From Zymomonas mobilis subsp. mobilis ATCC 10988 (lineage in GTDB: Bacteria; Pseudomonadota; Alphaproteobacteria; Sphingomonadales; Sphingomonadaceae), in contig NC_017262.1 of NCBI RefSeq assembly GCF_000175255.2, forward strand, positions 1,980,001-2,012,000: a stretch of DNA of 32,000 nucleotides. Reading direction: 5' to 3'. Of the stretch, positions 3,021 through 21,957 are shown in pieces. Position numbers and translations under genes: made by a program. Position 1 is the stretch's first letter, and each line of letters starts with the position of its first letter. The notes under the pieces are model-generated. The model worked only from the letters and a program-made list of their open reading frames with translations. It had not been told where the DNA came from and searched no databases.

Positions 3021-3848
3021 TCAGCGGATATCCTGTATTTTATCCACTTCTTCAAAAGAGCTTTTATAGCGGTCTTTTTCTTTTGGGCTACATAAAACTT
3101 CACCGCCAGAATGTTCGGCAACCCACGGATATTTCTTGGCAATTTCTGGCGTATAGCCCAAATTAAAGACCGTCGAGCTTTTGTTCGGACGCTCACGGCG
3201 AACGTAATATGTCCCGAGTAATTTATCCCAAAAGAAATTGGTAATACCGAAATTACCATCTTCATCATGGAAATGATGTTCCAGATGACGTTTCTTCATC
3301 AAAGCCAGCCTTTTGTTCTTGGGTTTATACCCCAAACGCTGGATGCAATGACAGAATTCATAGAAACAGGTGCTTAACAAACCAACGGCATAACCGATAC
3401 AGGCACCTCCGAAACCCCCTATAAGATAGCCGGGGAGGGCAGTTGCCAAAGCAACCGAAGGCAGTGTCGTATAAAGCGCCCCGAATAAAACCTCTAAATG
3501 GTCGGGATCAAGATGGTGGTCATAGTGAATCCGTTTCCATAGTCCCGACAGGAAAGGGACTTTAAACATCCAATGACCATGCATAATCCAGCGATGGGTG
3601 ACATACCAAACCAATGGAAAACCCAAAATAGCGACAGCGATTGAGGCGATAGTCGGTAAAAGAGGCGCAGGCTTCCAAATATAAAGGCCGATCATAACAG
3701 CGGCCAATGTCAGATAGGTCAAAATCGTATAATATTGGAAATAGACGACAACCAACTCTTTCAATGTCATCCGTCCAAGATAATGCGACTTTTTCCAGAA
3801 TCGGGAAGCTGTTTTTAATGTCTTGGCATCAGTTGTGTTCATCGTCAT
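3021..3848 (-). CDS. Membrane di-iron fatty-acid hydroxylase / sterol-desaturase superfamily protein
   Basis: Several hydrophobic helices plus histidine boxes HRWIMHGH, HYDHHLDPDH and HLEHHFH. The start is placed at the ATG after GAGGA. The ORF is open to 3872 and an ATG at 3842 is also possible. Confidence 0.7.
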   Translation of the reverse strand: MTMNTTDAKTLKTASRFWKKSHYLGRMTLKELVVVYFQYYTILTYLTLAAVMIGLYIWKPAPLLPTIASIAVAILGFPLVWYVTHRWIMHGHWMFKVPFLSGLWKRIHYDHHLDPDHLEVLFGALYTTLPSVALATALPGYLIGGFGGACIGYAVGLLSTCFYEFCHCIQRLGYKPKNKRLALMKKRHLEHHFHDEDGNFGITNFFWDKLLGTYYVRRERPNKSSTVFNLGYTPEIAKKYPWVAEHSGGEVLCSPKEKDRYKSSFEEVDKIQDIR

Positions 3849-3996
3849 AATCCTCGCAGATCCGAAAGACACCCGTCAAATCGGGTCACAATCGGAACCG
3901 AAGTTCAGAAGGTTGTTGCTTTTATTAAGGCGCAATAAGGCCTTTTTGAGGCAAATTTAAACAATAAAAACCCGAAAGTTTCCAAAAGGCATTATT

Positions 3997-4574: not shown

Positions 4575-5249
4575 ATGGTCATTTCTTTCGGTCGTCGGAT
4601 AGCCTCTTTTCTGACGGCAGGGTTTATTTCAGCCGGATTGCTGGCCTCTGCACCGGCCTCTGCAAATACTGGATACCTGTTTTGGTCTCCGCATGATTTT
4701 TCCGGTAAACCGGTCAAAGACAATGATCCTTCGGTCGTTCTTCCCCTTGTTAATGCTACACCGGCAGAACAACGCGCCAATCTGGTCTGGACATTGCGGT
4801 CAGGGTTGAATGTCGCCGCTTTGCAATGCCAATTTGCCCCTATTCTCGAAACCGCGCATGTGTATAACCAGCTTTTGGCAACGCATAAACGGGAATTGGC
4901 CTCTGCTTATACGGCTTTGGGTGGCTATTTCCGGCGGACAGGTGGCCGTTTTGGTCAGGTCAAATTTGACCAGCATTCGACCCAGACCTACAACCGTTTT
5001 TCAACTATGCAGGCACAGTTGGGCTTCTGCGATACGGCCGCTTCTATCGCTCACGAAGCGATGATTCATCCGAAAGGCAGCCTGTTCACTCTGGCTGAAA
5101 AACGGATGCAGGAATTTAAAAACAGCCTCGTTCCGGTAAAAGACATTCTTGCACCGACCGTAAAACTGACTTCCGAGCCGCCTTTACCGCCTTTCAATAA
5201 TGAATGTTGGGATAAAGATCGCCTCAGCCGTAAATGTCAGGCTGGCTGA
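4575..5249 (+). CDS. Secreted hypothetical protein
   Basis: GGGAGAG Shine-Dalgarno sequence upstream. Sec signal peptide ends in ASAPASA-NT. The mature part has four Cys residues. No family recognised. Confidence 0.55.
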   Translation: MVISFGRRIASFLTAGFISAGLLASAPASANTGYLFWSPHDFSGKPVKDNDPSVVLPLVNATPAEQRANLVWTLRSGLNVAALQCQFAPILETAHVYNQLLATHKRELASAYTALGGYFRRTGGRFGQVKFDQHSTQTYNRFSTMQAQLGFCDTAASIAHEAMIHPKGSLFTLAEKRMQEFKNSLVPVKDILAPTVKLTSEPPLPPFNNECWDKDRLSRKCQAG

Positions 5250-6097
5250 AAGTGAAAGACAGGCCGGCCATTCTCCCCTTAGGAGAGTGGCCACCTAAAA
5301 GGCCGGTTTTATTAACGGTTCCTCATGCAGGCCGTTTCTACCCCGAAGATTTGCTTGAAAAATTACGCTGTGAGCCGGAAAAACTGATTATCTTTGAAGA
5401 CCGCTTTGCCGATCTTCTCGTAGATAACGCGGTTTCTGCCGGTTTTTCAGCCTTGGTCGCCTGTTCACCCCGTGCTTTAATAGATTTAAACAGGCATCAT
5501 CTGGAAATTGATCCGATGATGATTGATCCCCCTTTGCCTTTGGATAGCGTTATTTTAACGTCCCGCTCGCGTAACGGCTTGGGGTTATTCCCGAATTATC
5601 TTGCTGGCTTTGGCGGGCTATATCATCATCTTTTACCTTATCAGGAAGCCCGCCATCGCATCGAAAATTATCATGCTCCGTGGCATGGCCATATCGCTGA
5701 TATTTTAGGCAATATAAAATCCCGTTATGGTTCCGCAATCTTGCTCGATATTCATTCCATGCCGCCTTTGATACCGGATGAGAAGGGAGAAGCCGCTGAT
5801 ATCGTCATTGGGACGGCCTATGGACACAGCGCCTCTTCGGAAATAACCGCTGTCATTGCTGAAATAGTCGAAAAACATGGCCTGAAACCGGCTTTTAACA
5901 AGCCTTATGCAGGGGGCTATACCGTGGACAGACATGGAAAACCGTCTTCCTCGCGCCATGCCTTACAAATAGAAATCGACCGCGCCCTTTATCTGGACGA
6001 GGATTTATATCATCCTTCGGCTTCGCTTCCGGCTATTCGGCAGCTTGTCCATGATATAGCCGAAGGCGTTGCCCAATATATCGAATTATCTCGCTAA
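5234..6097 (+). CDS. N-formylglutamate amidohydrolase (FGase) family protein
   Basis: 287 aa. LLTVPHAGRFYP near the N-terminus and LLDIHSMP in the middle are typical of the FGase family. The start overlaps the preceding ORF by 16 nt and is uncertain. Confidence 0.7.
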   Translation: MSGWLKVKDRPAILPLGEWPPKRPVLLTVPHAGRFYPEDLLEKLRCEPEKLIIFEDRFADLLVDNAVSAGFSALVACSPRALIDLNRHHLEIDPMMIDPPLPLDSVILTSRSRNGLGLFPNYLAGFGGLYHHLLPYQEARHRIENYHAPWHGHIADILGNIKSRYGSAILLDIHSMPPLIPDEKGEAADIVIGTAYGHSASSEITAVIAEIVEKHGLKPAFNKPYAGGYTVDRHGKPSSSRHALQIEIDRALYLDEDLYHPSASLPAIRQLVHDIAEGVAQYIELSR

Positions 6098-6098
6098 A

Positions 6099-7193
6099 TT
6101 ATTCTTCTGTCCTGATAAGAACGGCTTCCCCGATTAAAAGGAATAAGATGAAAGGCGAGCATGATGCCAATAAAGGCGGATAGGTTCCTAAATTCCCCAT
6201 AGTGAGGGCGAAGTTATCCGCGACAAAATAAGCAAAACCCAACGACATTCCGATAACGATACGGACAAAAAGCCGACCTGAACGCGCTAATCCAAAACCA
6301 GCAACAGAACCCAGAATAGGCATTAAAATAGCGGCAAAGGCGCCCGTAAAGCGATGGATAAGACTGGCTTTCAATTCGTCGGTTGGCCTTCCGGCAGCAT
6401 CCAAAGCCTTGATAGCACGATATAACGGCACAACTTCCATTTCATCGGCTTTAACATCGGCAAGGGTAAAGCGTTCTGGCGGTAAATCTGTATTGATATC
6501 CAAAACAGGTTTTTCCGTGACGGTATCAGCCGCGACATCAAAAGATTTTACTTTATTCAGATGCCAACCATGCCCTGTCCACTGTCCCGTATCGGCAGAC
6601 AAAATACTGACCAGCGTTTTTTGGGAGCGATTATAAACGGTAATACCGGATAAACGGACATTATCGCCATAGCCTTGGACATTATCGACATGGATAAGAT
6701 GGTCGCCATCGCGAAGCCAAATATTCACCCCGCTGGTAGCGGCTGGGGGCGGTTGGCCATAATCAACAGCCTGCCAAGCATCCAGCTTTGCCGTCGCGCG
6801 GGTGACAAGACGGTCATTAAAGACGAAACTGACGCATCCAATCAGAAAACAACTGGCAATCAGCGGCATCAAAATTTGATGTGCCGAGATACCCGCCGCC
6901 TTCATGGAGATGATTTCACTATTCTGGTTCAGGGTGCTTAACGTAATCAACACGCCCAACAGAACCGCAAAAGGTAAAAACCGCGCGATCAATTGGGGGG
7001 TTCTTAGCAAGACATAGTGAAATAATTCAGCCTGACCATTCCCTTTAACCGCCAAAATACGCGCGGATTCCCCCAACATATCAAGGGTTTGGAGAATAAA
7101 GATAAGGGCTGCCAAAACCGCAAAACATCTGACAACAAATAGCTTCGACAGATAAAAGGCAATCTGGCGTGATGCGAAAAGCCTTTTTATCAT
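6099..7193 (-). CDS. lptG: LPS export ABC transporter permease LptG
   Basis: 364 aa. YjgP/YjgQ architecture: three TM helices, a periplasmic beta-jellyroll region, then three TM helices. 4-nt ATGA overlap with the upstream lptF. Confidence 0.85.
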   Translation of the reverse strand: MIKRLFASRQIAFYLSKLFVVRCFAVLAALIFILQTLDMLGESARILAVKGNGQAELFHYVLLRTPQLIARFLPFAVLLGVLITLSTLNQNSEIISMKAAGISAHQILMPLIASCFLIGCVSFVFNDRLVTRATAKLDAWQAVDYGQPPPAATSGVNIWLRDGDHLIHVDNVQGYGDNVRLSGITVYNRSQKTLVSILSADTGQWTGHGWHLNKVKSFDVAADTVTEKPVLDINTDLPPERFTLADVKADEMEVVPLYRAIKALDAAGRPTDELKASLIHRFTGAFAAILMPILGSVAGFGLARSGRLFVRIVIGMSLGFAYFVADNFALTMGNLGTYPPLLASCSPFILFLLIGEAVLIRTEE

Positions 7194-8422
7194 GCCTTAA
7201 CCCCTCCTGATGAAAATCTTTTGAAAAACTGAACAATCCGCGACGAAATACGGGCAAAAAACCATTCCAGCGCACCGATAGGCTGACCACCTGGAATATA
7301 CGCCAAGGTATAATACATTCGCCAAACCAACAGGCTGAATAAAATAAAAGGCAGCCACATCATAAGAACCGGATTGATCTTCCCCAATCCTCCGATAGTC
7401 TGACAATATTGGTTCAGCTTATGATCGGTCACCAGAATAAGGATCGATAAAAACACCCCTAAAGAGGATGTCGAACGCTTGGGCGGTATCGCCAAAGTCA
7501 AAGCCAACATTGGTAACAGGAACATCGTCGCCACTTCAACCAGACGGAAATGGAGATTAGCCTGTAGCTGATTGCGGAGTTTTTTCGGTAAATGCTTTTG
7601 ATGAAGAATAAAAAATAATTCAGTCAGGGTCATTTCCTGCTGATTACCATCGCGACCACGAAAACTCTCAACTGCCGGTAATTTGATCGGCATATCGTGG
7701 TTTTCAAAGGTCAATACACGTGGGGTCGTAAAATCAGGGCGGTTATGAATAAGCAAACCATGATTGAGGCGCAAAAGAATGACATTGGGATCATCAGACG
7801 GCATGAAACGTCCGTTATCGGCAGTAACCGTCAGCTTTTGACCATTCTCAGGATTTTCGCTGGTTCCAAAAATACCAGAAAGATTTCGGCCGCTATCTTG
7901 GCTCCCTTCAACTCTCAAAGTCATATGGGTGCCTAATTTGGTAAATTCACCGACTTTAATCGCGGCCCCCAACGCGCCCGACCGCAATTCATAGCGCAAA
8001 TCTTCATAGGCATAATGGGAATAGGGTTCAATATAGCCCACAATCGCAAGGTTAACCAACGCAAAGAAGAAGGCAAAAATATAGGGAATCCGTAATAACC
8101 GACTATAACTTATCCCGACCGCCCGAAACACATCCAGCTCTGACTGCAAGGCCAATTTGCGAAACGCCAATAAAATACCCAATGTCAAACCAATCGGAAT
8201 GCCCAAGGACATATATTCCGGTAACATATTCGCCAGCATCCGCCAGACAACACTGACGGGGCCTCCTTGATTGGCGACGAAGTCAAAAAGCTTTAACATC
8301 TTGTCCAGCACCATTAACATGGCCGACACAATCAGGGTTGTGACCAAAGGAACAGTGATAAGACGGATCAGATAACGATCAATAGCATTAAAAATTCTCA
8401 AGCTTTCTGCGCTCCTCACCAT
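7190..8422 (-). CDS. lptF: LPS export ABC transporter permease LptF
   Basis: Same YjgP/YjgQ architecture, with N-terminal IDRYLIRL. The start is uncertain: ATG at 8446, ATG at 8422, or TTG at 8401 preceded by AGGAG. Confidence 0.8.
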   Translation of the reverse strand: MVRSAESLRIFNAIDRYLIRLITVPLVTTLIVSAMLMVLDKMLKLFDFVANQGGPVSVVWRMLANMLPEYMSLGIPIGLTLGILLAFRKLALQSELDVFRAVGISYSRLLRIPYIFAFFFALVNLAIVGYIEPYSHYAYEDLRYELRSGALGAAIKVGEFTKLGTHMTLRVEGSQDSGRNLSGIFGTSENPENGQKLTVTADNGRFMPSDDPNVILLRLNHGLLIHNRPDFTTPRVLTFENHDMPIKLPAVESFRGRDGNQQEMTLTELFFILHQKHLPKKLRNQLQANLHFRLVEVATMFLLPMLALTLAIPPKRSTSSLGVFLSILILVTDHKLNQYCQTIGGLGKINPVLMMWLPFILFSLLVWRMYYTLAYIPGGQPIGALEWFFARISSRIVQFFKRFSSGGVKA

Positions 8423-8528
8423 TTTATGGCCGCAATCACCATTCAAAAGTAACCATCCACGGAGACGCCGAATCTTTATGACCGTGCGTCGTTATTTTCG
8501 GGCTATAGCTTTGCGGAGTAAATAGGTC

Positions 8529-9068
8529 ATGCTGAAATTGACAGCCTTTATCGCATCCATTCCTTTGATAATAGGCGTAAATGCGGCCAATGCCGCTATT
8601 TTAGGGGCAGATGCCGCCGCCTGCCAAAAGGGCGGACAAAAACCCGCTATTCTGGTGCATGTCGAAGGCCTGAAAAACCGTAGCGGCACCTTGCGGGTGC
8701 AAGCCTATGATGCCGATCAAAAGGTCTATTTTGAAAAGGGAAAATACCTCACGCGGGTAGAAACCCCGCTTCCCCAAGAAGGTAATATTGATGTCTGCCT
8801 GACTGTGCCAAAAGCAGGCGATTACACGGTTTTGGTGCGCCATAAAAATGGTGATACCGACCGCGAAGATGGCGGCGGCTTTTCCGGTAATCCTTCAATG
8901 TCGTTAATGGATGTTGCGTTAAAGCATAAACCCCCTCTAAAAGCCTCGACTATTACCGTTGGCAATGGCGTCTTAGATATTAAAATTATTATGAAATATA
9001 TTCAGGGATTAAGTTTTAAACCAATTGCGTCTCTTGACGATAAGAAGAACAGCGAGGGTACGCGATGA
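8529..9068 (+). CDS. Secreted DUF2141-like protein
   Basis: Signal peptide MLKLTAFIASIPLIIGVNAANA. The pattern G-LRVQAYD...AGDYTVLVRHKNGDTDREDGGGFSGNP...KPP matches what I remember of DUF2141. Confidence 0.6.
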   Translation: MLKLTAFIASIPLIIGVNAANAAILGADAAACQKGGQKPAILVHVEGLKNRSGTLRVQAYDADQKVYFEKGKYLTRVETPLPQEGNIDVCLTVPKAGDYTVLVRHKNGDTDREDGGGFSGNPSMSLMDVALKHKPPLKASTITVGNGVLDIKIIMKYIQGLSFKPIASLDDKKNSEGTR

Positions 9069-10042
9069 CTTCAGTTGCCTTGCTGTCTAATCCACAGTCT
9101 ACCGGCAATCGGGCAAAGTTACCCGACATCAGGCATTTTTGTATTCAGGAAGACGATGTCTTTCATTACGAAGTGGAAGAGGTGGATCAGATAGGGGAGG
9201 CGTTATCCAGTATCGCTCAAACACGGCCATCTATTTTGGTCGTGAATGGCGGGGACGGCACTGTCCAAACTGTTTTGACGGCTCTTTATACCGGCAAATA
9301 TTTTGAAAAGCATATGGTGCCGCCGGTTGCGGTTCTACCAAACGGCAAAACCAATCTGATTGCCTTGGATTTGGGGGCAGAAGGCGACCCGGTGGTGGCC
9401 TTGCAAAAAATTCTGGATATTGCACGCGGTGATCTCGACAGCCATATCGTTAAACGCGAATTGATCGCCTTATCGGATAGCAGTGATAAACCACCGGTTC
9501 TCGGGATGTTTCTCGGCGGGGCAGGACTGGCTGATCTTATCATCTATTGTCGTGATACGATTTATCCGCTTGGTTTACCGAATGGTATCAGTCATGTCAT
9601 CGCGGCATTTGCGCTTCTGATATCCATGTTTATTCGCGCGCCTTTATCCTTTTTACCGCGTGCAGCGCGGCCTATTTCTGTTTCCTTGATGCAGCAAGGC
9701 CAGATCAAGGGTAACTTCTCTCTTTTGGTTGTGACGACTTTGGAACGGCTCTTGGTCGGGACACATGTGTTTCAACAAGATCCGCAAGACAAAGGCTCAA
9801 TGAAACTGATGATGGTTGACCAAAATCCGTTTCATCTTATCCATGCGGTGGCGGCAGGTATTGTGGGGCGGCTCGGGAAAAGCCGTATCAAAGGCGTTCA
9901 TCTCAAACAGGATGATGAAATCAGAATTGCTGGTGAACGCTCACATTTAATCTTGGATGGCGAAGTCTTTTACGCGGATAACGAACATCCGGTTATTTTG
10001 CGGCATACCGAGCCGATTTCTTTTGTGAAACTCGCCGTCTAA
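9065..10042 (+). CDS. DAGK/LCB5-fold lipid kinase (diacylglycerol / sphingoid / ceramide kinase-like catalytic domain)
   Basis: ILVVNGGDGTVQTVL (GGDGT motif) and LPNGKTNLIALDLG. ATGA start/stop overlap with the DUF2141-like gene. Confidence 0.7.
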   Translation: MTSVALLSNPQSTGNRAKLPDIRHFCIQEDDVFHYEVEEVDQIGEALSSIAQTRPSILVVNGGDGTVQTVLTALYTGKYFEKHMVPPVAVLPNGKTNLIALDLGAEGDPVVALQKILDIARGDLDSHIVKRELIALSDSSDKPPVLGMFLGGAGLADLIIYCRDTIYPLGLPNGISHVIAAFALLISMFIRAPLSFLPRAARPISVSLMQQGQIKGNFSLLVVTTLERLLVGTHVFQQDPQDKGSMKLMMVDQNPFHLIHAVAAGIVGRLGKSRIKGVHLKQDDEIRIAGERSHLILDGEVFYADNEHPVILRHTEPISFVKLAV

Positions 10043-10112
10043 ATTTTATTGCACTGATCTAAAAGCAGGGGGACTATAACCGCTTTTGGCGGTTATAATA
10101 TGCTATAAATAT

Positions 10113-11021
10113 ATGATGCAAAAATGGAAGAATACGGATGTGCATGGCCTAAAAAGCATCATTGGTGAAGAACTGACAAAGACGGTTTTGCCGGAAATAT
10201 CCGATATGGCGGCCGCTATTGCTGCACGGCATGGCTCTTCACGGGCTGTTCTTTTTTACGGCTCGGCTTTACGCGCGACTGATCTTGATGGCCTGATGCT
10301 GGATTTTTACCTGATTGTTGATGATTATCATCAGGCTTATTCTCATCGCTGGTTGGCATGGGCGAATAAAGCACTGCCACCTAATGTTTTTCTTTTCCGT
10401 TACAAGGATTTTGTCGCCAAATATGCGGTGCTGACGCTTTCGGATTTCCGGCGGCTGGCGTCACTTGAAACCTTGTCGGTTTCGGTCTGGGCGCGCTTTG
10501 CCCAACCCAGTCGCTTGGTCTGGGCAAAAGACAAAGATTCTGTCACCGCAACAATCGCTGTTGTGGCTTGTGCGGCACCCACTCTTTTGGAAGCAGCGGC
10601 ACCGCTCTTCTCGGGATCAAAAGATCCCCTTGACCGCTGGCGCGAAGCCTTCCGCTTGACCTATCAAGCCGAATTGCGGGTTGAAAAATCGGACGGTCGG
10701 GCTGATCTGATCGTGGACAGCAATCCCGAATATTACCGCCATATTACCCAAGCGGTTGTCGCTCATATCAGCCGAAATTTACCGAGCCGTAAGCAGGCTT
10801 TGCGCTTATGGGCAAAAAGAAGATGGCGCGGCAAATGGCTTAGTATTTTCCGCTTGGCCAAGGCTAGTTTCACCTTCGCAGGTGGGCTTGATTATCTTGC
10901 ATGGAAAATCAACCGCCATGCAGGCACTCAAATCATGATCAAGCCTTGGCAACGCCGTTTTCCGATTATTGGGGCATTAACACTTCTGCCCCGCTTACTT
11001 GCCAAAGGCACCGTGCGCTAA
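10113..11021 (+). CDS. Tam41/Mmp37-like nucleotidyltransferase-fold protein (putative lipid cytidylyltransferase)
   Basis: The ordered pattern FYGSAL..-LDFYLIVDD-...PPNVFLF...AKYAVLTLSDF...WARFAQPSRLVW parallels the Tam41 blocks YGSGVF / IDxIxxV / VYFN / KYGVV / AGRLQKP. This is recognition by eye only. The ATG at 10113 is preferred over the tracked TTG at 10086. Confidence 0.45.
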   Translation: MMQKWKNTDVHGLKSIIGEELTKTVLPEISDMAAAIAARHGSSRAVLFYGSALRATDLDGLMLDFYLIVDDYHQAYSHRWLAWANKALPPNVFLFRYKDFVAKYAVLTLSDFRRLASLETLSVSVWARFAQPSRLVWAKDKDSVTATIAVVACAAPTLLEAAAPLFSGSKDPLDRWREAFRLTYQAELRVEKSDGRADLIVDSNPEYYRHITQAVVAHISRNLPSRKQALRLWAKRRWRGKWLSIFRLAKASFTFAGGLDYLAWKINRHAGTQIMIKPWQRRFPIIGALTLLPRLLAKGTVR

Positions 11022-11047
11022 TAGCTTTAAACGCATCTGAAATGGAA

Positions 11048-11080
11048 AGAACCGGCCTAGACAGCCGGTTCTTTTTTATT
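11048..11080 (+). terminator. Intrinsic terminator of the 8.5-11.0 kb operon
   Basis: AGAACCGGC / GCCGGTTCT 9-bp stem with a 7-nt loop, followed by TTTTTTATTTT. Confidence 0.8.
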
Positions 11081-13301
11081 TTCCAAGATTTTGTAATAAG
11101 CCTGTTGTCAGAATTTGCGGCAATATCTGAATTTCGCCATCGGCGGGATAATAGAGATAAAGCGGAATACCCGAACGATGCATCTTGGACAGAAAACGGG
11201 TAATTTCAGGATCACCATTTGTCCAATCGCCATGCAAGGTAACAATACCCTTCTGCCGGAAAGCCTGACGAGTGCTATCACGATCAATCGCCATTTTCTC
11301 GTTGACCTTACAAGTCAGACACCAATCTGCCGAAAAATAGATGAAAAGCGGTTTTTTCTGGCGATGTAATTCTTCAACCGCTTGTTCACTAAAAGGCTCT
11401 ATCTCCGGCGCATCTTTAGCGTTTTCGACTTTTGGATTTGTCTCACTTGCAATCGGATGGGCAGGGGTAAAAGAACCAATCACCACTGAAAATAGGATCG
11501 CTATCGCCGCAGGTAAAAAGCTGTAATTCTTTCCCTTATGTTGGCGTTTTCCTGTCCACCATAACCCTGTTGCCGATATCAGACAGATACCGAAGGCAAC
11601 AATTAAACCATCCGTTCCGATCTGATGCCCTAATGTCCATCCCAACCACAAGGCAGTGATAAACATCGGAATAGCCAAAATATGGCGCATCGTGGCCATC
11701 CATGCCCCGGGTCTTGGCAATAATTTCCGTATCGGCGGGACAAAACCAATCGCCAAAAAGGGCAGTGCCATACCAATACCCAATCCGGCAAAAACCATCA
11801 GGGATTCAATCGGTGACAAGACCAAGGCAACCCCGATCGCTGCCGCCATAAAGGGACCCGTGCAAGGGGTCGCAATAAAGGCGGCCAAAGCGCCCGTGGT
11901 AAAGGCACCTAAAAGGCTATCCTGTTTTGGATTAGCTCCGCCGTTAAAACTCGGAAGCTCAAATAATCCGGCCAGATTAAAACCAATCATGGCGGTTAAA
12001 ACCATCAAAGCCAAAACGATATGGGGATATTGCAACTGGAATGCCCATCCAACGGCATGCCCTCCCGCTCGAAACAAAAGAAGTGCCGCACCCAATCCCA
12101 AACAGACCATAATCACACCAGCGCTATAGGCTGAGGCTTCTAACCGATGGGCTTTTTCAGGGGCATGGGTGCGGGCAAGGCTCAAGGCCTTCAGGCTCAA
12201 GATAGGAAAGACGCAAGGCATGATATTTAAAATCAGCCCACCCAAAAACGCCCCTGCCAAAGCCAACCATAACAGCTTGCCATTATGTCCTTTTCCTACA
12301 GAGGGAGTTTCATTTTGTGCTGTATTCTGTTGCGGGGAAGCTGTCGCTTTGGCTTGGCCTTCTTCACTTGATGCCGTCAAAATAACGGGATTTTTGTCCG
12401 GTAGAGAGATATTGCCTTTTTGAGCATTGACCAAGAAACCCTTTCCGTCTTTTAAACGGAAAACGCCGGTTATAGCGGAGGGAATAGAGGCTTTTTCCCG
12501 CAAGGGCAGGGTCAGAAAAAGGGCGTTACCCTCACGAAGCAAGCGTTGATCGGCACTATAGTCAAACACGCCATCTTGTGACGGGAAAAACCACACGCCA
12601 TTGATCGTGGTATCAAGCTTTTCGGTTTCGGGATAATCCAGTTTCAGAATGATTTGATTCTGTTGTTGGGCAAATAAAGCCTGCCTTCCAGTTGTTTCTG
12701 GTAAAGCCCGTCGAAAGGCCTGAAATAGTTGGCTATTATCCGCTGTAATTTCACCCTTACCGATATGCAGCAACAAATGACGTTCGGCCGTTTCTGGCAC
12801 ACAGCTGGTATCGGTGCAGGCCAACCAATTTAACTGCGCCGATATCGGCAAAGCTGTTCCCACAGGCAAGCCGGCCGGAATATCCAGATCAATCAACAAG
12901 CGATAATCATGCTGATAGACATAGCTCATTAAACCGGCGACTTTCATCTTTTCCGGTATCGGATACTGGATAGCCGAGGTTTTAATTTTATAAGGAAAAT
13001 GCCAGATTATTTCGGTTTCTTGTCCGGCATCACCCCCGTTTTTCCAATAACCATGCCAGCCCTGATGGGGCTTCATTTCCAAGGCTACGGTCACCTTTGT
13101 CCCTGCTTTAGGGGTTAAGGTCTCTGCGATAAATTGTGGCTCGATATGCAAATCGCTATCGGACAAAGTCGCGGCAGAAAGGGGATAGATGAAAAGGGCT
13201 AAAGCCCAGCAAAAAAGGCAGCCAAAGGCGCGGTAAACGGAGGCCAATATCGTCATAACCCTCACGGTAACATTTCTTTTCATGAAAGCAAGAAAGAACA
13301 A
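11076..13301 (-). CDS. dsbD: DsbD/ScsB-type thiol:disulfide reductase (periplasmic N-domain, DsbD membrane core, C-terminal thioredoxin)
   Basis: 741 aa. The TM core has MPCVFPIL and ATPCTGPF. The C-terminal thioredoxin has FSADWCLTCK. The large N-terminal periplasmic domain contains CTDTSC. The exact start is uncertain. Confidence 0.85.
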   Translation of the reverse strand: MFFLAFMKRNVTVRVMTILASVYRAFGCLFCWALALFIYPLSAATLSDSDLHIEPQFIAETLTPKAGTKVTVALEMKPHQGWHGYWKNGGDAGQETEIIWHFPYKIKTSAIQYPIPEKMKVAGLMSYVYQHDYRLLIDLDIPAGLPVGTALPISAQLNWLACTDTSCVPETAERHLLLHIGKGEITADNSQLFQAFRRALPETTGRQALFAQQQNQIILKLDYPETEKLDTTINGVWFFPSQDGVFDYSADQRLLREGNALFLTLPLREKASIPSAITGVFRLKDGKGFLVNAQKGNISLPDKNPVILTASSEEGQAKATASPQQNTAQNETPSVGKGHNGKLLWLALAGAFLGGLILNIMPCVFPILSLKALSLARTHAPEKAHRLEASAYSAGVIMVCLGLGAALLLFRAGGHAVGWAFQLQYPHIVLALMVLTAMIGFNLAGLFELPSFNGGANPKQDSLLGAFTTGALAAFIATPCTGPFMAAAIGVALVLSPIESLMVFAGLGIGMALPFLAIGFVPPIRKLLPRPGAWMATMRHILAIPMFITALWLGWTLGHQIGTDGLIVAFGICLISATGLWWTGKRQHKGKNYSFLPAAIAILFSVVIGSFTPAHPIASETNPKVENAKDAPEIEPFSEQAVEELHRQKKPLFIYFSADWCLTCKVNEKMAIDRDSTRQAFRQKGIVTLHGDWTNGDPEITRFLSKMHRSGIPLYLYYPADGEIQILPQILTTGLLQNLGK

Positions 13302-15316: not shown

Positions 15317-16021
15317 TTAAGCCTGCTGGCCTTCCAATTCGGCATGTTCTGCTTCGCGCAAGATGTAACCGCGTCCCCAGACCGTTTCGATATAATTTTC
15401 GTCAGGATAGGCTTTGTTCAGCTTTTTCCGCAGTTTGCAGACAAAGACATCAATAATTTTTAATTCCGGTTCATCCATCCCACCATAAAGATGGTTCAAG
15501 AACATTTCTTTCGTGATGGTGGTGCCTTTTCTCAAAGACAGCAATTCCAATATGGCATATTCTTTACCGGTCAGATGAACAGGCTTGTTATCAATCTCGA
15601 CTGTTTTACTATCAAGATTGACGGTTAAACGGCCTGTTTTAATAATTGACTGGGAATGGCCTTGGGAACGGCGAACAACGGCTTGAATACGGGCAATCAA
15701 TTCTTCCTGATGGAAAGGCTTGGTCAAATAATCATCAGCCCCAAAGCCCAAAGCCCGCACTTTGGATTCCATTTCGGCAATACCAGACAATACAATGATC
15801 GGCGTTTTTACCTGCGCCGTCCGTAACGTCTTTAATACTTCATAGCCATGCATATCGGGCAAATTGAGATCAAGACAAATGATATCATAATCATACAGCT
15901 TGCCCAGATCGATGCCTTCTTCGCCAAGGTCTGTCGTATAGACATTGAAACGCTTTTTCGTCAGCATCAATTCGATAGATTTCGCCGTTGTCGGCTCATC
16001 TTCTATCAATAAAACACGCAT
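15317..16021 (-). CDS. ctrA: Cell-cycle response regulator CtrA (OmpR-type)
   Basis: MRVLLIEDE...[14 protein letters not shown]...LSG...[10 protein letters not shown]...[48 protein letters not shown]...[10 protein letters not shown] is near-diagnostic for CtrA. Confidence 0.93.
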
Positions 16022-16207: not shown

Positions 16208-16903
16208 TCAAGATTCTGTTTTATATTTTAACTCTAAAAAGCGCTGCTGAGTAGCCAATTTATCAAGATCATGATGGGCAAGCTCTTCTTCTATGCGACC
16301 TAGTGCCTGATTGATCACATCTAGGCCGGTTGCAAGCTGTGAATCAGGGCTATCCAGACCAGCGCGTTTCTGTGTTCTTAAGTTAACGGGTATTTCGACA
16401 TAGCCTTTAACCAATTCCGGCATTTCTTCACTGACCAATTTTCGCATCTGGGTCGCTGTCGGATCATCTTCCGGCAGTTTTTCGGTGACAGAGGACAAAT
16501 GCGATAATTTATCAAGGATCGATTCTGCCAAAGGACGGGCAGGCGGCGGCAAAGCCTGTTTCTGGGCTGACAGCCATGAAGCGGCCTGCGACGGTAATTG
16601 TTTTAAAGACTGTTTTTGCAAATTTTCAATTTTAACCGGACGCGGCAAGGGCAGGGTCAAAGGTGCCAAAATACTCCCCAAGACCAAGGCCGCAAAAGTC
16701 AGGATAATACCAGAAATGCCCAGCGGATGGATAAAACCAATAATAAAGGCGGCCAGTATAATCGCCGCATCCGTTACACATAGCCGCTTTAGTCGCCGTC
16801 CTAACAGGCTTTTCTTTGCAAAGGCGCGGCTTGCTTCTTGACCATCCCGAAGCCTTGCCAAAACAGCCTGCGCTTCCAAAAGTATTTGCTGATTACTGGC
16901 CAT
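16208..16903 (-). CDS. XpaC-like membrane protein (5-bromo-4-chloroindolyl phosphate hydrolysis protein family)
   Basis: 231 aa with two adjacent TM helices followed by a coiled C-terminal region. It starts 9 nt after the telA-like stop. This is the same pairing as yaaN-xpaC in Bacillus. The call rests on architecture and context only. Confidence 0.5.
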   Translation of the reverse strand: MASNQQILLEAQAVLARLRDGQEASRAFAKKSLLGRRLKRLCVTDAAIILAAFIIGFIHPLGISGIILTFAALVLGSILAPLTLPLPRPVKIENLQKQSLKQLPSQAASWLSAQKQALPPPARPLAESILDKLSHLSSVTEKLPEDDPTATQMRKLVSEEMPELVKGYVEIPVNLRTQKRAGLDSPDSQLATGLDVINQALGRIEEELAHHDLDKLATQQRFLELKYKTES

Positions 16904-16912
16904 TTATTTCCC

Positions 16913-18187
16913 TTACAAAGGCTTGAACGGATCTCCTGTCGGAACCGTTTTAGAAGCCGCCGCCGCAGGCGGTGCATTTTTGTCCTCTGCCTGCATCAAC
17001 TGTTTCATTGCTTGGTCTTGACCTTGGCCGGAACCTTGCGCCCGCGCAATATAACCGCGTGATTTCTCAATTTCGTCAGACAAGACATCGACCGTCTGTT
17101 TCATCGAAGACAAGGCTTGGACTTTATATTGGTCAATAGAATCCATGGTTGCATAGATATTGCTAAAGGCACGCTTCAGAACATCGAGTGGGATCGTTGC
17201 CGATGCCGCTTGTTTCTGAATCTCTCCGGTCTGGTTTCTTAACATTTCGCCAGTGGAATCGATAATATTCGCCGTCGTGCTGTTCAAAGCATTGATCTGT
17301 TCCAGAACAAGCTTTTGGTTGGTCAAAGCCTGCGCCACGGTCACGGCTGTTTTTAGGGCGGCCACTGTCGTTGTCGAAGCGCGATCAACCCCTTTAATCA
17401 GTTCGATATTATTCTTTCTGACCAGATCCAATGCCAGATAGCCCTGAACACTCACGGCTAATTGGGTCAAAAGATCTGTTACCCGTTGCCGGACATAGAA
17501 CAGCGCGCTTTCCCGCAAGGTCTTGGCTTTGGCTGGATCGCTGATGTCCAGCTCATGACTTTTGGCTTCCAACTGGCTATCCAGCGTTTTCGCCATATAA
17601 ATCATCTGTTCCAGACGTTCCAACGTCGCCCATAAGGTCTGGCGCTCAACGTCAATCGCCGCATTATCTTTCAACAATTCATCCTTACCGCTTTCAAGAC
17701 TGGTAAGAATGGTGCCGATATGGGATTGCGCCGATTTATAGCTGTCGAAATAATCGCGGAGCTTGTTTCCGAAAGGAATAATACCAAAAATCTTCTTGGG
17801 CGCCGTTAAATCACCGCGTTTTCCGGGATCAAGGTCTTCGATCACCCGCCGCAACTGGGCAAGATTGGAACCAATGGGGCTACTGCCATCCATGGCTTTA
17901 ACCGGACGATCCAAAAAACGATTAGATTGATTGGCGGCTTCCCGAATTTCATTGCGTCCCAGATTGATGATAGAATCAACTTTTTTGCCAAATTCGGGGC
18001 TATTGGGATTTTCGGCCACCAGTTCTTCAATAAAGCCGCTCACCTTGGCTTCAAGCTGGCTTTTTTTGCCATCATCCAATGGGACTAAACCATCGGCTTT
18101 TTCTGTCGAAACGGGTGGAACAGGATCAGGGGGAGTTAGCTTTAAATCAGCATTATTCTGACCAGCGGCATTATTTTCTGTAACCAT
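16913..18187 (-). CDS. telA: TelA / YaaN-family toxic anion resistance protein
   Basis: About 424 aa, all-helical, with characteristic N-terminal blocks (VSGFIEELVAENPNSPEFGKKVDSIINLGRNEIREAANQSNRFLDRPVKAM). ATG at 18187 is preceded by GGGGAG. Confidence 0.8.
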   Translation of the reverse strand: MVTENNAAGQNNADLKLTPPDPVPPVSTEKADGLVPLDDGKKSQLEAKVSGFIEELVAENPNSPEFGKKVDSIINLGRNEIREAANQSNRFLDRPVKAMDGSSPIGSNLAQLRRVIEDLDPGKRGDLTAPKKIFGIIPFGNKLRDYFDSYKSAQSHIGTILTSLESGKDELLKDNAAIDVERQTLWATLERLEQMIYMAKTLDSQLEAKSHELDISDPAKAKTLRESALFYVRQRVTDLLTQLAVSVQGYLALDLVRKNNIELIKGVDRASTTTVAALKTAVTVAQALTNQKLVLEQINALNSTTANIIDSTGEMLRNQTGEIQKQAASATIPLDVLKRAFSNIYATMDSIDQYKVQALSSMKQTVDVLSDEIEKSRGYIARAQGSGQGQDQAMKQLMQAEDKNAPPAAAASKTVPTGDPFKPL

Positions 18188-18270
18188 CAAGCGGCACTCC
18201 CCAACTATCCATCTGTAAAATCTGGCCTTTTATTTCCGGTCTTCAAGAGACGAAAAGAAATTTAACGCTT

Positions 18271-19386: not shown

Positions 19387-20727
19387 TTACCGACCTAATT
19401 TGGTCAGACTGCGATCAAGCGCTCCGGTTAACCAATCAATATCGCCACTCTGGAAGGCCAGAGGTGGCCGCAATTTCAGAACATTACCATAAGGCCCAGC
19501 AACCGAGGTCAGAACATGTTCGTCGCGAAGCGCTTCGATCAGATCGAGTGCCAATTCTTTATCCGGTTCTTTGCTGTTGCGATCTTTCACCAATTCAAAA
19601 CCGATGAACAGACCGGCACCCCGAACATCTCCAACGGATTCATGCTTATCTTGCAGTTTTTTCAGTTCACCCAAAAGTTCAGCCCCGACTTTTTGGGTAT
19701 GGGTCTGAAGATTTTCTTCCTTGATGACATTCAAAACGGCAGAGGCCGCCGCCATTGAAACCGGATTGCCGCCGAATGTGTTGAAATAAGGGACATGGTT
19801 ACTAAAGGCTTCCATCACTTCCTTGCGGGCGAAAAGACCGGAAACCGGAATACCATTCCCCATCGGTTTTCCCGTTGTTACGACATCGGGAATTAAGCCA
19901 TGCCGCCCAAATCCCCAGAAAGATTCACCGGTTCTAACAAAGCCCGGCTGCACTTCATCGGCAATGAAAATACCGCCATTTTTGTGGACGACATCAATCG
20001 CCTCTTTCAAAAATCCGGCTTCACCTGGCAAGACACCATCCGAAGAGAAAATCGAATCCGCCATAAATCCGGCAAATTTGATGCCATGGGCAGCCATATC
20101 ATCAATCTGCTTTTGCATTTCGGCGGCAAACCATGCACCGGCATCTTGTCCTGCCAAACGATAATGGTCAGGCGCAGGCACCAAACGCGTATTCGGGGAC
20201 AAATTTTGACCGCTACCAAGGGCAGGGGATGCGCCAGAGGTCAGAAAACTGGTACCGTGATAGGATTCCTGCGTCACGATAATGCCGGTTCCACCCGACC
20301 ATTCACATGCGATCCGCATTGCCAGATCATTGGCTTCGGATCCGGTGCACATATACATAGCGCGATTGATTTCTTCCGGCATGGTTGCCAAAATCGCTTC
20401 GGAATAATCAAGGATCGTTTCATGCAAATAGCGGGTATGGGTATTCAACCGGCCCATCTGCTCATAAACCGCTTCGATAACGGCAGGATGGCAATGACCG
20501 ATGCTGGCAACATTGTTATAAACATCCAGATATTTATCACCATTGGCATCCCATAAATAAGCCCCTTTTCCGCGCACCAGATGGACAGGACGGCGATAAA
20601 AAAGGCGATAGGATGCGCCCAAAAGATCTTTACGGCGCTCGGTCAGGGAACGCGTTGCCTCATCCAAAGCGGCGGCATGTTCATCCCGAAAACTGTTCGT
20701 GTCCATAATGGTAGAGCGACTTGACAC
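19387..20727 (-). CDS. Class-III PLP enzyme of the ETNPPL/PHYKPL (AGXT2L1/2) branch: putative O-phospho-amino-alcohol phospho-lyase
   Basis: 446 aa. GTG start with AAGGAG 7 nt upstream. Motifs: NNVASIGHCHP, GSEANDLAMR, ADEVQPGFVRTGESFWGF, PDVVTTGKPMGNGIPV, FNTFGGNPVS, NVLKLRPPLAF. Confidence 0.7.
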   Translation of the reverse strand: MSSRSTIMDTNSFRDEHAAALDEATRSLTERRKDLLGASYRLFYRRPVHLVRGKGAYLWDANGDKYLDVYNNVASIGHCHPAVIEAVYEQMGRLNTHTRYLHETILDYSEAILATMPEEINRAMYMCTGSEANDLAMRIACEWSGGTGIIVTQESYHGTSFLTSGASPALGSGQNLSPNTRLVPAPDHYRLAGQDAGAWFAAEMQKQIDDMAAHGIKFAGFMADSIFSSDGVLPGEAGFLKEAIDVVHKNGGIFIADEVQPGFVRTGESFWGFGRHGLIPDVVTTGKPMGNGIPVSGLFARKEVMEAFSNHVPYFNTFGGNPVSMAAASAVLNVIKEENLQTHTQKVGAELLGELKKLQDKHESVGDVRGAGLFIGFELVKDRNSKEPDKELALDLIEALRDEHVLTSVAGPYGNVLKLRPPLAFQSGDIDWLTGALDRSLTKLGR

Positions 20728-20946
20728 AGTATTCTCCTTTTCAGGATTAAAAAGAAAACTAATGTTCCAATTATGTCAGTCGTCCTTGAAACAAACTTGA
20801 CGGCAGAAGACATTCTTAATTTTTTTATGTCAAAAGTTTCGTCTTTTATTTCTTTGCGGTCAAAAAAGGGTCGTCTCCAGCCAAGTTATAAATCTCAACC
20901 TCTTCTTATCATGACTCCAGAAAATAAACGTTCAGGAGTCTGCCAC

Positions 20947-21957
20947 ATGAATTCCCGACATGCCGATAATCTCGACACCTCCATTCTTTCCCAATTGGCA
21001 GCGCAAGCAATGGAGGCCTATCCTAAAGCCTATCAGGGAAAAATCCGGCTTTTAACGCGTTCGGAAAATGCGACTTTTCACATTGCGGCATCTTCCGGTG
21101 AAAATTATGCCCTGCGCCTGCACCGTCCCCATTATCACGATAAACAAAGCATTACGGGCGAATTGGCATGGCTGAAAGCGTTACAGGAAGATATCGGTTT
21201 AACGGTGCCGCAAGCTATTCCTGACCGCGATGGGGAAGTGATTCAAACCCTAAAAGCGCCCGATGGCGCGCTGCGCTATGCGGTGCTTTTCAACTGGGTC
21301 GAAGGCGAAATGCCAACGGCTGATCTTGACCCTTCGCTGTTCCAAAGACTGGGCGAAGTGACCGCCCATCTGCATCAGCATAGCCAACGCTGGGAAAAGC
21401 CGGATAATTTCAAACGTCTTATCTGGAATCATGAAAATATGGTGGGTGCCGACGGCTATTGGGGCGATTGGCGCGCCACTCCGGGGCTAGATTCAAACGG
21501 CATTATCATTATGCGTGAAGCTATGGAGCAAATCGGGCAATCCTTGGAAAAATTTGGCCAATCTTCCGACCGTTACGGCCTTATCCATGCGGATTTAAGA
21601 TTAACCAATATTCTTATCCATGAAGGCGATACAAGGGCGATTGACTTTGATGACTGCGGCACTGGATGGTTTCTGCATGATCTCGCTGCGGCGATCAGTT
21701 TTGAAGAACATAATCCGGCCGCGCCTTTATGGGTCGAAAATTGGCTGAAAGGCTATGATCGAGTTCAGTCCCTTTCTCGGGAAGAAATTGATATTCTTCC
21801 AGCGCTTTTCGCCCAAAGAAGAATCCAAATGACGGCATGGGTTGGATCTCATGCGGATACCGATATGGCGCGCAGTTTAGGGGGCGACTGGCTGGCACAT
21901 ACGGTGCGCTTATGCCGTGACTATCTTGACGGAAAAACACCGCTTGGTGCTGCCTAA
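20947..21957 (+). CDS. APH/choline-kinase-fold phosphotransferase (hydroxylysine-kinase / amino-alcohol-kinase-like)
   Basis: Brenner motif LIHADLRLTNILI and the Mg-binding motif IDFDD. I chose the ATG at 20947 (AGGAG 8 nt upstream). The tracked start at 20773 adds a non-conserved-looking 58 aa. Confidence 0.75.
   Translation: MNSRHADNLDTSILSQLAAQAMEAYPKAYQGKIRLLTRSENATFHIAASSGENYALRLHRPHYHDKQSITGELAWLKALQEDIGLTVPQAIPDRDGEVIQTLKAPDGALRYAVLFNWVEGEMPTADLDPSLFQRLGEVTAHLHQHSQRWEKPDNFKRLIWNHENMVGADGYWGDWRATPGLDSNGIIIMREAMEQIGQSLEKFGQSSDRYGLIHADLRLTNILIHEGDTRAIDFDDCGTGWFLHDLAAAISFEEHNPAAPLWVENWLKGYDRVQSLSREEIDILPALFAQRRIQMTAWVGSHADTDMARSLGGDWLAHTVRLCRDYLDGKTPLGAA

Follow-up and report, generated by a model that had tools for sequence, protein, structure and literature searches.

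The window discussed here is a stretch of 32,000 nucleotides of Zymomonas mobilis subsp. mobilis ATCC 10988 (contig NC_017262.1, positions 1,980,001 to 2,012,000). Its subject is a unit of three co-oriented + strand open reading frames (ORFs) that spans 8529-11021 and diverges, on the ORF map of the window, from the lptF and lptG genes. The unit is likely to be the Zymomonas cpgB-cpgC module of bacterial anionic sphingolipid synthesis, lying in a remnant of the Sphingomonadales sphingolipid locus. An earlier note had read it as a lipid kinase gene next to one for a lipid-phosphate nucleotidyltransferase, preceded by a gene for a periplasmic protein of the DUF2141 family; that interpretation is supported in its main lines. 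The system has already been described for Z. mobilis. The three genes are:

8529-9068, + strand: gene 1, 179 aa, ZMO1392 by position.
9065-10042, + strand: gene 2, 325 aa, the putative CpgB-type kinase.
10113-11021, + strand: gene 3, 302 aa counted from its ATG; the longest ORF begins at a TTG at 10086.

Zik et al. (2022) defined the Caulobacter operon CCNA_01217-01219, in which CpgB is an LCB5-type kinase (PMC9393093). Deletion of cpgB leaves cells without ceramide-1-phosphate; deletion of cpgC leaves ceramide-1-phosphate in place and eliminates ceramide phosphoglycerate, or CPG (PMC9393093), and Caulobacter genetics thereby show CpgC to be required for converting the former to the latter (PMC9393093, PMC11324152). 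CpgA, which has a PgsA domain, is needed only for CPG2 (PMC9393093). Olea-Ozuna et al. (2024) list ZMO1390, ZMO1391, ZMO1393, ZMO1394 and ZMO1400 of Z. mobilis ZM4 as the orthologs of, respectively, CpgC, CpgB, LptF2, LptG2 and bCerS (PMC11324152). Their table pairs ZMO1391 with CC_1160/CpgB at 29% identity (E 2e-22), ZMO1390 with CC_1161/CpgC at 36% identity and 95% coverage (E 1e-51) and ZMO1400 with CC_1154 bCerS at 40% identity (E 2e-97); no Z. mobilis ortholog is given for CpgA, CC_1158 or CC_1157, and CPG but not CPG2 is predicted for the organism (PMC11324152). The gene order of the window matches the published series of ZMO locus tags exactly, with the skipped ZMO1392 falling at the DUF2141 gene. 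Locus and pathway assignment are therefore already known, and the Caulobacter cpg locus, which the earlier note had named as a possible counterpart, is indeed the homologous system.

In the Caulobacter cpgABC cluster (CCNA_01217-01219, equivalently CC_1159-1161) the kinase gene is followed at once by the CpgC-family gene, as it is here; both pairs are linked to lptF2/lptG2 and bCerS, and the CpgC proteins are of similar size (~300 aa). The differences lie around this core. The Zymomonas locus is without cpgA (PF01066), the CC_1158 phosphoesterase gene and the CC_1157 HIT gene; a DUF2141 gene, absent from the Caulobacter cluster list, precedes its kinase gene; its spt, acp and cerR genes are not adjacent, unlike those of Caulobacter; and it diverges directly from lptFG, which in Caulobacter lie several genes away.

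The neighborhood of gene 3 in related genomes ties the pair to sphingolipids. The gene 3 family is large and strongly conserved: Sphingomonadales supply >7,900 close matches, about 57-60% identical, and an exhaustive search gave 1,452 clusters at 50% identity. The context counts that follow refer to 80 loci found with the closer gene 3 alignment, which returned Sphingomonadales only. In 58 of 71 testable loci a co-oriented kinase gene immediately precedes gene 3, and lptF and lptG are both present in every one (51/51) of the kinase-containing loci with at least 5 kb of upstream sequence. The serine palmitoyltransferase gene (spt) lies downstream on the opposite strand, usually 2.0-2.1 kb away, in 47 of the 55 loci with enough flank, its identity confirmed by the NF047603 equivalog model (795.7 bits against a cut-off of 670); among these 47 are 12 of the 13 loci whose gene 3 has no adjacent kinase gene. 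Genes for acyl carrier protein (ACP), a CerR-like protein and an acyl-ACP synthetase adjoin spt in the relatives' loci, and bCerS-like homologs are found 2-3 kb past lptG in most of them. Locus L008 has the whole arrangement. One strand carries a bCerS-like GNAT gene, a fatty acid (FA) hydroxylase gene, lptG and lptF; the opposite strand carries the DUF2141 gene, the kinase gene and gene 3; and beyond gene 3 come a hybrid histidine kinase gene, spt, a small ORF of ACP size and a gene for a CerR-like NAD epimerase. The published S. wittichii table (Swit_3897-3908) has the same layout as this reconstructed Sphingomonadales locus, and its orthologs Swit_3900-3908 follow the order of the Zymomonas window (PMC11324152). 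An arrangement that recurs in dozens of Sphingomonadales genomes is far beyond chance.

Divergent lineages extend the association. In protein P0262 the kinase and gene 3 homologs are naturally fused end to end, and its gene starts 17 nt after one for a CDP-alcohol phosphatidyltransferase (PF01066; CDP is cytidine diphosphate). The order PF01066-kinase-gene 3 is seen in loci L081, L086 and L088; in L087 the gene 3 homolog precedes a PF01066 gene and overlaps it by 4 nt; and L085 is a complete sphingolipid locus. The kinase is fused, adjacent or nearby in 8 of 10 distinct divergent contexts, among which a CpgA-like PF01066 gene appears in four, spt in four and a bCerS-like gene in three (the last in L085, at 43% identity, L087 and L092). 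Three divergent contigs are too short for Pfam context, and tblastn recovered kinase and spt fragments in two of them. The functional coupling of kinase and nucleotidyltransferase that was proposed from the Zymomonas sequence is thus borne out by the adjacency, the fusion and the PF01066 operons, and joint conservation of the genes in relatives likewise (for DUF2141, 46 of 57 loci). What had been left as a membrane lipid alcohol of either kind, diacylglycerol or ceramide, becomes specifically a sphingolipid substrate with spt, ACP, CerR, bCerS and lptFG genes around the pair. A 611-aa ORF covering gene 3 in Sphingobium (L046), which might have been a second fusion, was rejected as a spurious extension, since a kinase domain is absent from it and part of it overlaps gcvPB.

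Adjacency to lptFG could instead reflect lipopolysaccharide (LPS) biogenesis, with the operon modifying LPS, lipid A or a polyprenol carrier. The operon does diverge from genes that pass both the LptF and the LptG equivalog models, and a distant gene 3 relative (L082-84) lies alongside GT4, Wzy_C and Asp_Arg_Hydrox genes. Against this, the remaining conserved neighborhood is one of ceramide synthesis, and the genes conserved alongside the pair include none for a lipid A or polyprenol enzyme. S. wittichii has no LPS; its only LptFG are the homologs of those seen here, and sphingolipids are their proposed cargo. Export of sphingolipids depends on LptF2/G2, and these permeases are dispensable in cells that make none (preprint 10.64898/2026.04.12.717747). 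We regard an LPS role as very improbable. The distant relatives deserve a comment of their own: those in L082-84 follow lptF-lptG and have no kinase gene (L082 4343-9383), and the one in L092 (8001-13787) lies 3-4 kb from ACP and spt-like genes; in both L082 and L092 sulfotransferase and Mito_fiss_Elm1-family genes are found with them, and these relatives may represent a different headgroup chemistry on the same scaffold.

PF00781 DAGK_cat recognizes the product of gene 2 (E 5e-14), whose GGDGT motif is at residue 62, as expected of the DAGK/LCB5-fold lipid kinase for which it had been taken; the CxxxCxxC motif of the eukaryotic type is absent from its translation. With the soluble DAGK_cat kinases YegS, DgkB and MamU it has in common the catalytic domain and the GGDG nucleotide motif. 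It differs from them by subfamily: its scores against their equivalog models (16-29 bits) are so far under the cut-offs (118-400) that it must be placed in a separate group of lipid kinases, fitting the 'distinct bacterial ceramide kinase clade' of PMC10331486. Caulobacter CpgB has been purified and shown biochemically to be an ATP-dependent ceramide kinase (PMC10331486). The sequence supports assignment of gene 2 as a ceramide kinase of this CpgB type.

A kinase of this fold followed by a Tam41-like enzyme might also be a glycerolipid salvage system, that is, a soluble diacylglycerol kinase and a Tam41-type CDP-diacylglycerol synthase recycling the diacylglycerol of envelope biogenesis, unrelated to sphingolipids. 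Databases label relatives of gene 2 diacylglycerol kinases and one relative of gene 3 a phosphatidate cytidylyltransferase, and Tam41 is itself a CDP-diacylglycerol synthase. Two further points favor salvage and count against the sphingolipid assignment: CpgB is reported to phosphorylate diacylglycerol as well as ceramide in vitro (PMC11324152 S1 Text), and the spt, acp and cerR genes are not in the Zymomonas window and lie elsewhere in the genome. However, in most Sphingomonadales, and in divergent lineages too, the pair has lptFG/bCerS on one side and spt-acp-cerR on the other; the Caulobacter mutants lose (cpgB) or accumulate (cpgC) ceramide phosphate (PMC9393093); and the kinase family is almost confined to genera that make sphingolipids or encode their synthesis (PMC10331486). 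Salvage is, in our judgment, improbable, and we retain ceramide as the likely substrate.

Gene 3 requires a fuller account. The blocks by which it had been likened by eye to Tam41/Mmp37 (YGS, LDFYLIV, PPNVF, KYAV and ARFAQP) are present, and they are invariant or nearly so in its family. An AlphaFold model made from the alignment (predicted local distance difference test score, pLDDT, 88.9; predicted template-modeling score, pTM, 0.88) finds as its top Foldseek matches Tam41 itself: the bacterial protein with bound cytidine triphosphate (CTP) and Mg (7ECD) and the S. pombe structures 6IG4 and 6IG2, at E 1.4e-7 to 4e-5, probability 1.00 and template-modeling (TM) scores of 0.44-0.56 over 232-274 columns. 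The CTP-bound bacterial structure is the best of these (E 1.4e-7, TM 0.51/0.56); other nucleotidyltransferases reach a TM of 0.32 at most. Sequence links of a transitive kind agree: family member P0190, which matches the gene 3 profile at E 3e-69, passes the PF09139 cut-off of 24 with 34.3 bits and matches SpTam41 at E 3.7e-6. Among 129 diverse family representatives, 15 reach PF09139 at E<=0.01 and no other family recurs, and a profile of the diverse family matches SpTam41 (6ig2) at E 4.8e-5. That alignment pairs the blocks YGS..D, KY[AG]V.S, RF.[QK]P and Y..[DE].R, in which G50, D64, K103, R128, Q131, E187 and R189 of gene 3 are family-invariant. Finally, +17 of the total net charge of +19 resides in residues 226-302, a segment rich in W, F and L; a cationic C-terminal membrane helix has been described for Tam41 (PMC7018664).

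Three results stand against this assignment. PF09139 has no match on the gene 3 protein, even at E=10, and Pfam as a whole gave it none; a sequence search of the PDB, with gene 3 alone or with a 40-sequence profile, returned no match; and the core of the nucleotidyltransferase (NTase) domain has one conserved Asp in strand 2 (D64), not the classical D-x-D. The likeness drawn from motifs accordingly stands on its blocks, the fold of the model and the transitive Pfam and PDB links, while direct detection by PF09139 has failed. By virtue of its fold, the P0190 and profile links, the shared blocks and the cationic C-terminus, gene 3 is nevertheless a divergent member of the Tam41 superfamily, despite failing the formal Pfam test. 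A published InterPro assignment likewise gives homologs of CC_1161 a Tam41/Mmp37 domain (PMC11324152, S1 Text). Like Tam41/Mmp37 (PF09139/IPR015222), gene 3 has an NTase domain, a helical domain and a cationic C-terminal membrane segment. Unlike it, gene 3 has no beta 'wing' in the helical domain of its model; its sequence is only 12-13% identical to Tam41, below the Pfam threshold; and its context and genetics favor ceramide-1-phosphate over phosphatidate as the lipid substrate.

The pathway may be pictured as follows. First, gene 2 would phosphorylate ceramide at the inner membrane to yield ceramide-1-phosphate, a reaction shown for its Caulobacter ortholog. Second, gene 3, as a predicted peripheral membrane protein with the Tam41 NTase fold and a cationic C-terminal membrane anchor, would be needed for converting ceramide-1-phosphate to a lipid with a phosphodiester headgroup, a requirement that is genetic in Caulobacter. 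The product would be CPG, or ceramide phosphoglycerol, which a Z. mobilis glucuronosyltransferase mutant is reported to accumulate (Okino et al. 2020, as cited in PMC11324152 S1 Text). The chemistry that seems likeliest for this step is transfer of cytidine monophosphate (CMP) from CTP onto ceramide-1-phosphate, generating CDP-ceramide, the analogue of CDP-diacylglycerol; such an activation is indicated alike by the fold, by the conservation of the blocks at the nucleotide site, by the kinase fusion and by the recurrent partnership with PF01066. A CDP-alcohol phosphatidyltransferase, the operon partner in other lineages, would then resolve CDP-ceramide. In Zymomonas, which is without cpgA, a housekeeping PgsA-type enzyme would probably do so, and its action on CDP-ceramide would explain how Z. 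mobilis comes to have ceramide phosphoglycerol despite the missing gene. Third, to judge from the work on Caulobacter, the adjacent LptF and LptG would extract the completed sphingolipid, which would then be carried to the outer membrane.

That gene 3 and the other members of the CpgC family are CTP:ceramide-1-phosphate cytidylyltransferases making CDP-ceramide, the whole being a sphingolipid copy of the Kennedy CDP-diacylglycerol route (kinase, Tam41-fold synthase, CDP-alcohol transferase), is a tentative proposal, one that may well be right and may well be wrong. Its corollary is that mitochondrial Tam41 may have descended from this alphaproteobacterial sphingolipid enzyme family. Several points stand against it. 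Papers of 2025 and May 2026 still have CpgC acting via an 'unidentified mechanism', and in the literature searched we found no published cytidylyltransferase assay for any CpgC; the term 'CDP-ceramide' appears in none of some 8 million searchable papers. For the cpgB-cpgC assignment as a whole, the orthology with Caulobacter is taken from BLAST tables in the literature and from synteny. Above all, the Caulobacter cpgA (PF01066) deletion loses only CPG2 and keeps CPG (PMC9393093): the obvious consumer of CDP-ceramide is not required for the CpgC step, which would have to be finished by some other transferase or by CpgC itself.

The genes, then, may be right and the chemistry different: CpgC might make no CDP-lipid at all, its nucleotidyltransferase scaffold serving to attach glycerate or phosphoglycerate directly to ceramide-1-phosphate or to activate the small-molecule partner. 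Zik et al. proposed direct addition of glycerate to ceramide phosphate (PMC9393093), and the persistence of CPG in the cpgA deletion implies that a dedicated CDP-alcohol transferase is unneeded for the CpgC step. CC_1161 mutants cofit with the gluconeogenic enzymes that supply phosphoglycerate (PMC11324152 S1 Text), and the family has diverged so far from Tam41 that PF09139 misses 114 of its 129 members. On the other hand, forming a phosphodiester from a phosphomonoester needs activation, and CMP transfer to a lipid phosphate is the only known chemistry of the closest relatives of the fold (PMC7018664). Gene 3 recurs in operons with PF01066 genes, and the nucleotide-binding blocks that it has in common with CTP-bound Tam41 are family-invariant. 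The CDP-glycerate that CpgD provides is not needed for CPG. This different chemistry we consider rather unlikely, and CDP-ceramide remains the intermediate that we favor. CpgD (CCNA_01210), a CTP:phosphoglycerate cytidylyltransferase, belongs to the same overall Caulobacter pathway as CpgC; it differs from gene 3 in its soluble substrate, in the step that it serves (CPG to CPG2) and in having an unrelated IMPCT/GlmU-type fold (PMC12275187), and on account of the fold it was rejected as a homolog. Z. mobilis has only a partial match to CpgD (ZMO1100, 24% coverage; PMC11324152).

Gene 1 is a signal-bearing DUF2141 protein, as had been thought: it matches PF09912 (E 5.5e-13; 49.3 bits against a gathering cut-off of 24.4), and its N-terminus is a hydrophobic, signal-like segment ending ANA|A (residues 1-20 have low pLDDT). 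The suggestion that it acts on or binds the product of the pathway in the periplasm is, in contrast, unsupported. The DUF2141 gene precedes the kinase gene in 46 of the 57 kinase-containing Sphingomonadales loci and is missing from 11; it is absent from the Caulobacter cluster; and its AF2 model (mean pLDDT 77.8, with a beta-sandwich core above 85) finds nothing informative among PDB structures, the best match having an E of 5e-3 and the TM scores being 0.37 or lower. A substitute for LptC or LptA was also considered and rejected, the sandwich being of a generic Ig/transthyretin-like kind that has no match to Lpt proteins. Since gene 1 is translationally coupled to the kinase gene and a DUF2141 gene is also present in divergent locus L085, this secreted beta-sandwich protein is still a reasonable candidate for a lineage-specific accessory; it would be a Sphingomonadales-specific periplasmic accessory of sphingolipid export or remodeling.

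The noncoding features within and around the unit are these:

11044-11076, + strand: intrinsic terminator, a hairpin with a 13-bp stem (6 G-C pairs) followed by a T-run, which closes the operon.
10074-10098, + strand: a perfect 10-bp hairpin, TATAACCGC..GCGGTTATA, in the gene 2-gene 3 spacer, without a T-run.
8447-8528, no strand: the divergent intergenic region, 82 bp given the TTG start of lptF.

Genes 1 and 2 overlap by the ATGA at 9065-9068; the stop codon of gene 2 is at 10040-10042 and the ATG of gene 3 at 10113, leaving a spacer of 70 nt. These coordinates agree with the earlier note throughout (three-gene unit, ATGA overlap, 70-nt gap and strong terminator), as does the divergence across 82 bp from lptF and lptG, both of which pass their NCBIfam cut-offs. 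The sigma-70 consensus finds no match within the 82-bp region at 8447-8528, which presumably holds the promoters of both operons. The hairpin of the spacer has a fold z of -2.0 and is only partly kept in Z. mobilis AN0101; in most other Sphingomonadales the gap between gene 2 and gene 3 is much shorter, or their ends overlap. The terminator hairpin ends at the final base of the convergent dsbD ORF (11076-13301, - strand) and may serve dsbD and the operon bidirectionally. The window has a GC content of 46-48%, its proteins are 90-99% identical to Z. mobilis proteins, it matches Z. mobilis loci of like gene order at 80-97%, and its gene order fully matches that of strain AN0101 (L002).

On the far side of the divergent region lie the following genes:

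7190-8446, - strand: lptF; TIGR04407, 233.2 bits against a cut-off of 230; ZMO1393, the published LptF2 ortholog.
6099-7193, - strand: lptG; TIGR04408, 287.4 bits against a cut-off of 240; ZMO1394, the published LptG2 ortholog.
3021-3872, - strand: membrane hydroxylase of the FA_hydroxylase family; PF04116, E 1.4e-20.
1728-2885, - strand: bCerS-like GNAT N-acyltransferase with a weak Acetyltransf_1 match; ZMO1400 by position and species.

The hydroxylase gene also adjoins the GNAT gene in L008, L016, L080 and L085, and its product is a candidate for the hydroxylase of the ceramide acyl chain; Caulobacter is reported to use instead a DesA-family enzyme, CC_0202, for acyl-chain hydroxylation. 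The GNAT and hydroxylase genes have thus remained in the Zymomonas window, in which dsbD and ggt replace the spt side of the locus, including its hybrid histidine kinase gene. That kinase (CHASE3-HisKA-HATPase-REC, ~650 aa; L008 10911-12872 and L046 10824-12815, both on the - strand) may regulate sphingolipid synthesis; in most Sphingomonadales its gene is the only conserved one that separates spt from the cpgC-like gene. A CpgA-type PF01066 domain is absent among the window ORFs of at least 150 aa, and two CpgA-like queries matched, by tblastn, neither the window nor any Sphingomonadales locus among the 80, in agreement with the published statement that Z. mobilis is without CC_1159.

Several other features of the window may be recorded. 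Between lptG and the hydroxylase gene lie a gene for a secreted 224-aa protein with no family match (4575-5249, + strand) and, overlapping it by 16 nt, one for an N-formylglutamate amidohydrolase (5234-6097, + strand); among the loci compared, only those of Zymomonas (the window and L002) have this pair in that place. A class-III aminotransferase gene (19387-20727, - strand) and a divergent APH-family kinase gene (20773-21957, + strand) match halves of the single fused NCBIfam models NF004799/NF004800 (the aminotransferase the C-terminal half, the APH kinase the N-terminal half), and their sequences suggest the two-gene form of a kinase-aminotransferase fusion. At 16208-18190 on the - strand lies a gene for TelA (toxic anion resistance); the 231-aa ORF that comes after it matches nothing in Pfam, and a response regulator gene lies nearby (15317-16021).

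No new system is added by this analysis, the genes having already been assigned to the sphingolipid pathway. Added for the CpgC step are a confident structural match to CTP-bound Tam41, a natural kinase-CpgC fusion and a repeated linkage to CDP-alcohol transferases, which, taken together, turn CDP-ceramide as an intermediate into a definite hypothesis open to experiment; the conserved, kinase-coupled gene for a periplasmic DUF2141 protein at the ZMO1392 position, skipped in the published ortholog tables, is flagged here as well. Anionic sphingolipids can replace lipopolysaccharide in the outer membrane of Caulobacter, and the sphingomonads, including Zymomonas, an industrial producer of ethanol, depend on sphingolipids of the cell surface. 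If the proposal of a CDP-ceramide intermediate is true, bacteria would make their phosphosphingolipids along a route that exactly mirrors, for sphingolipids, the Kennedy CDP-diacylglycerol pathway.

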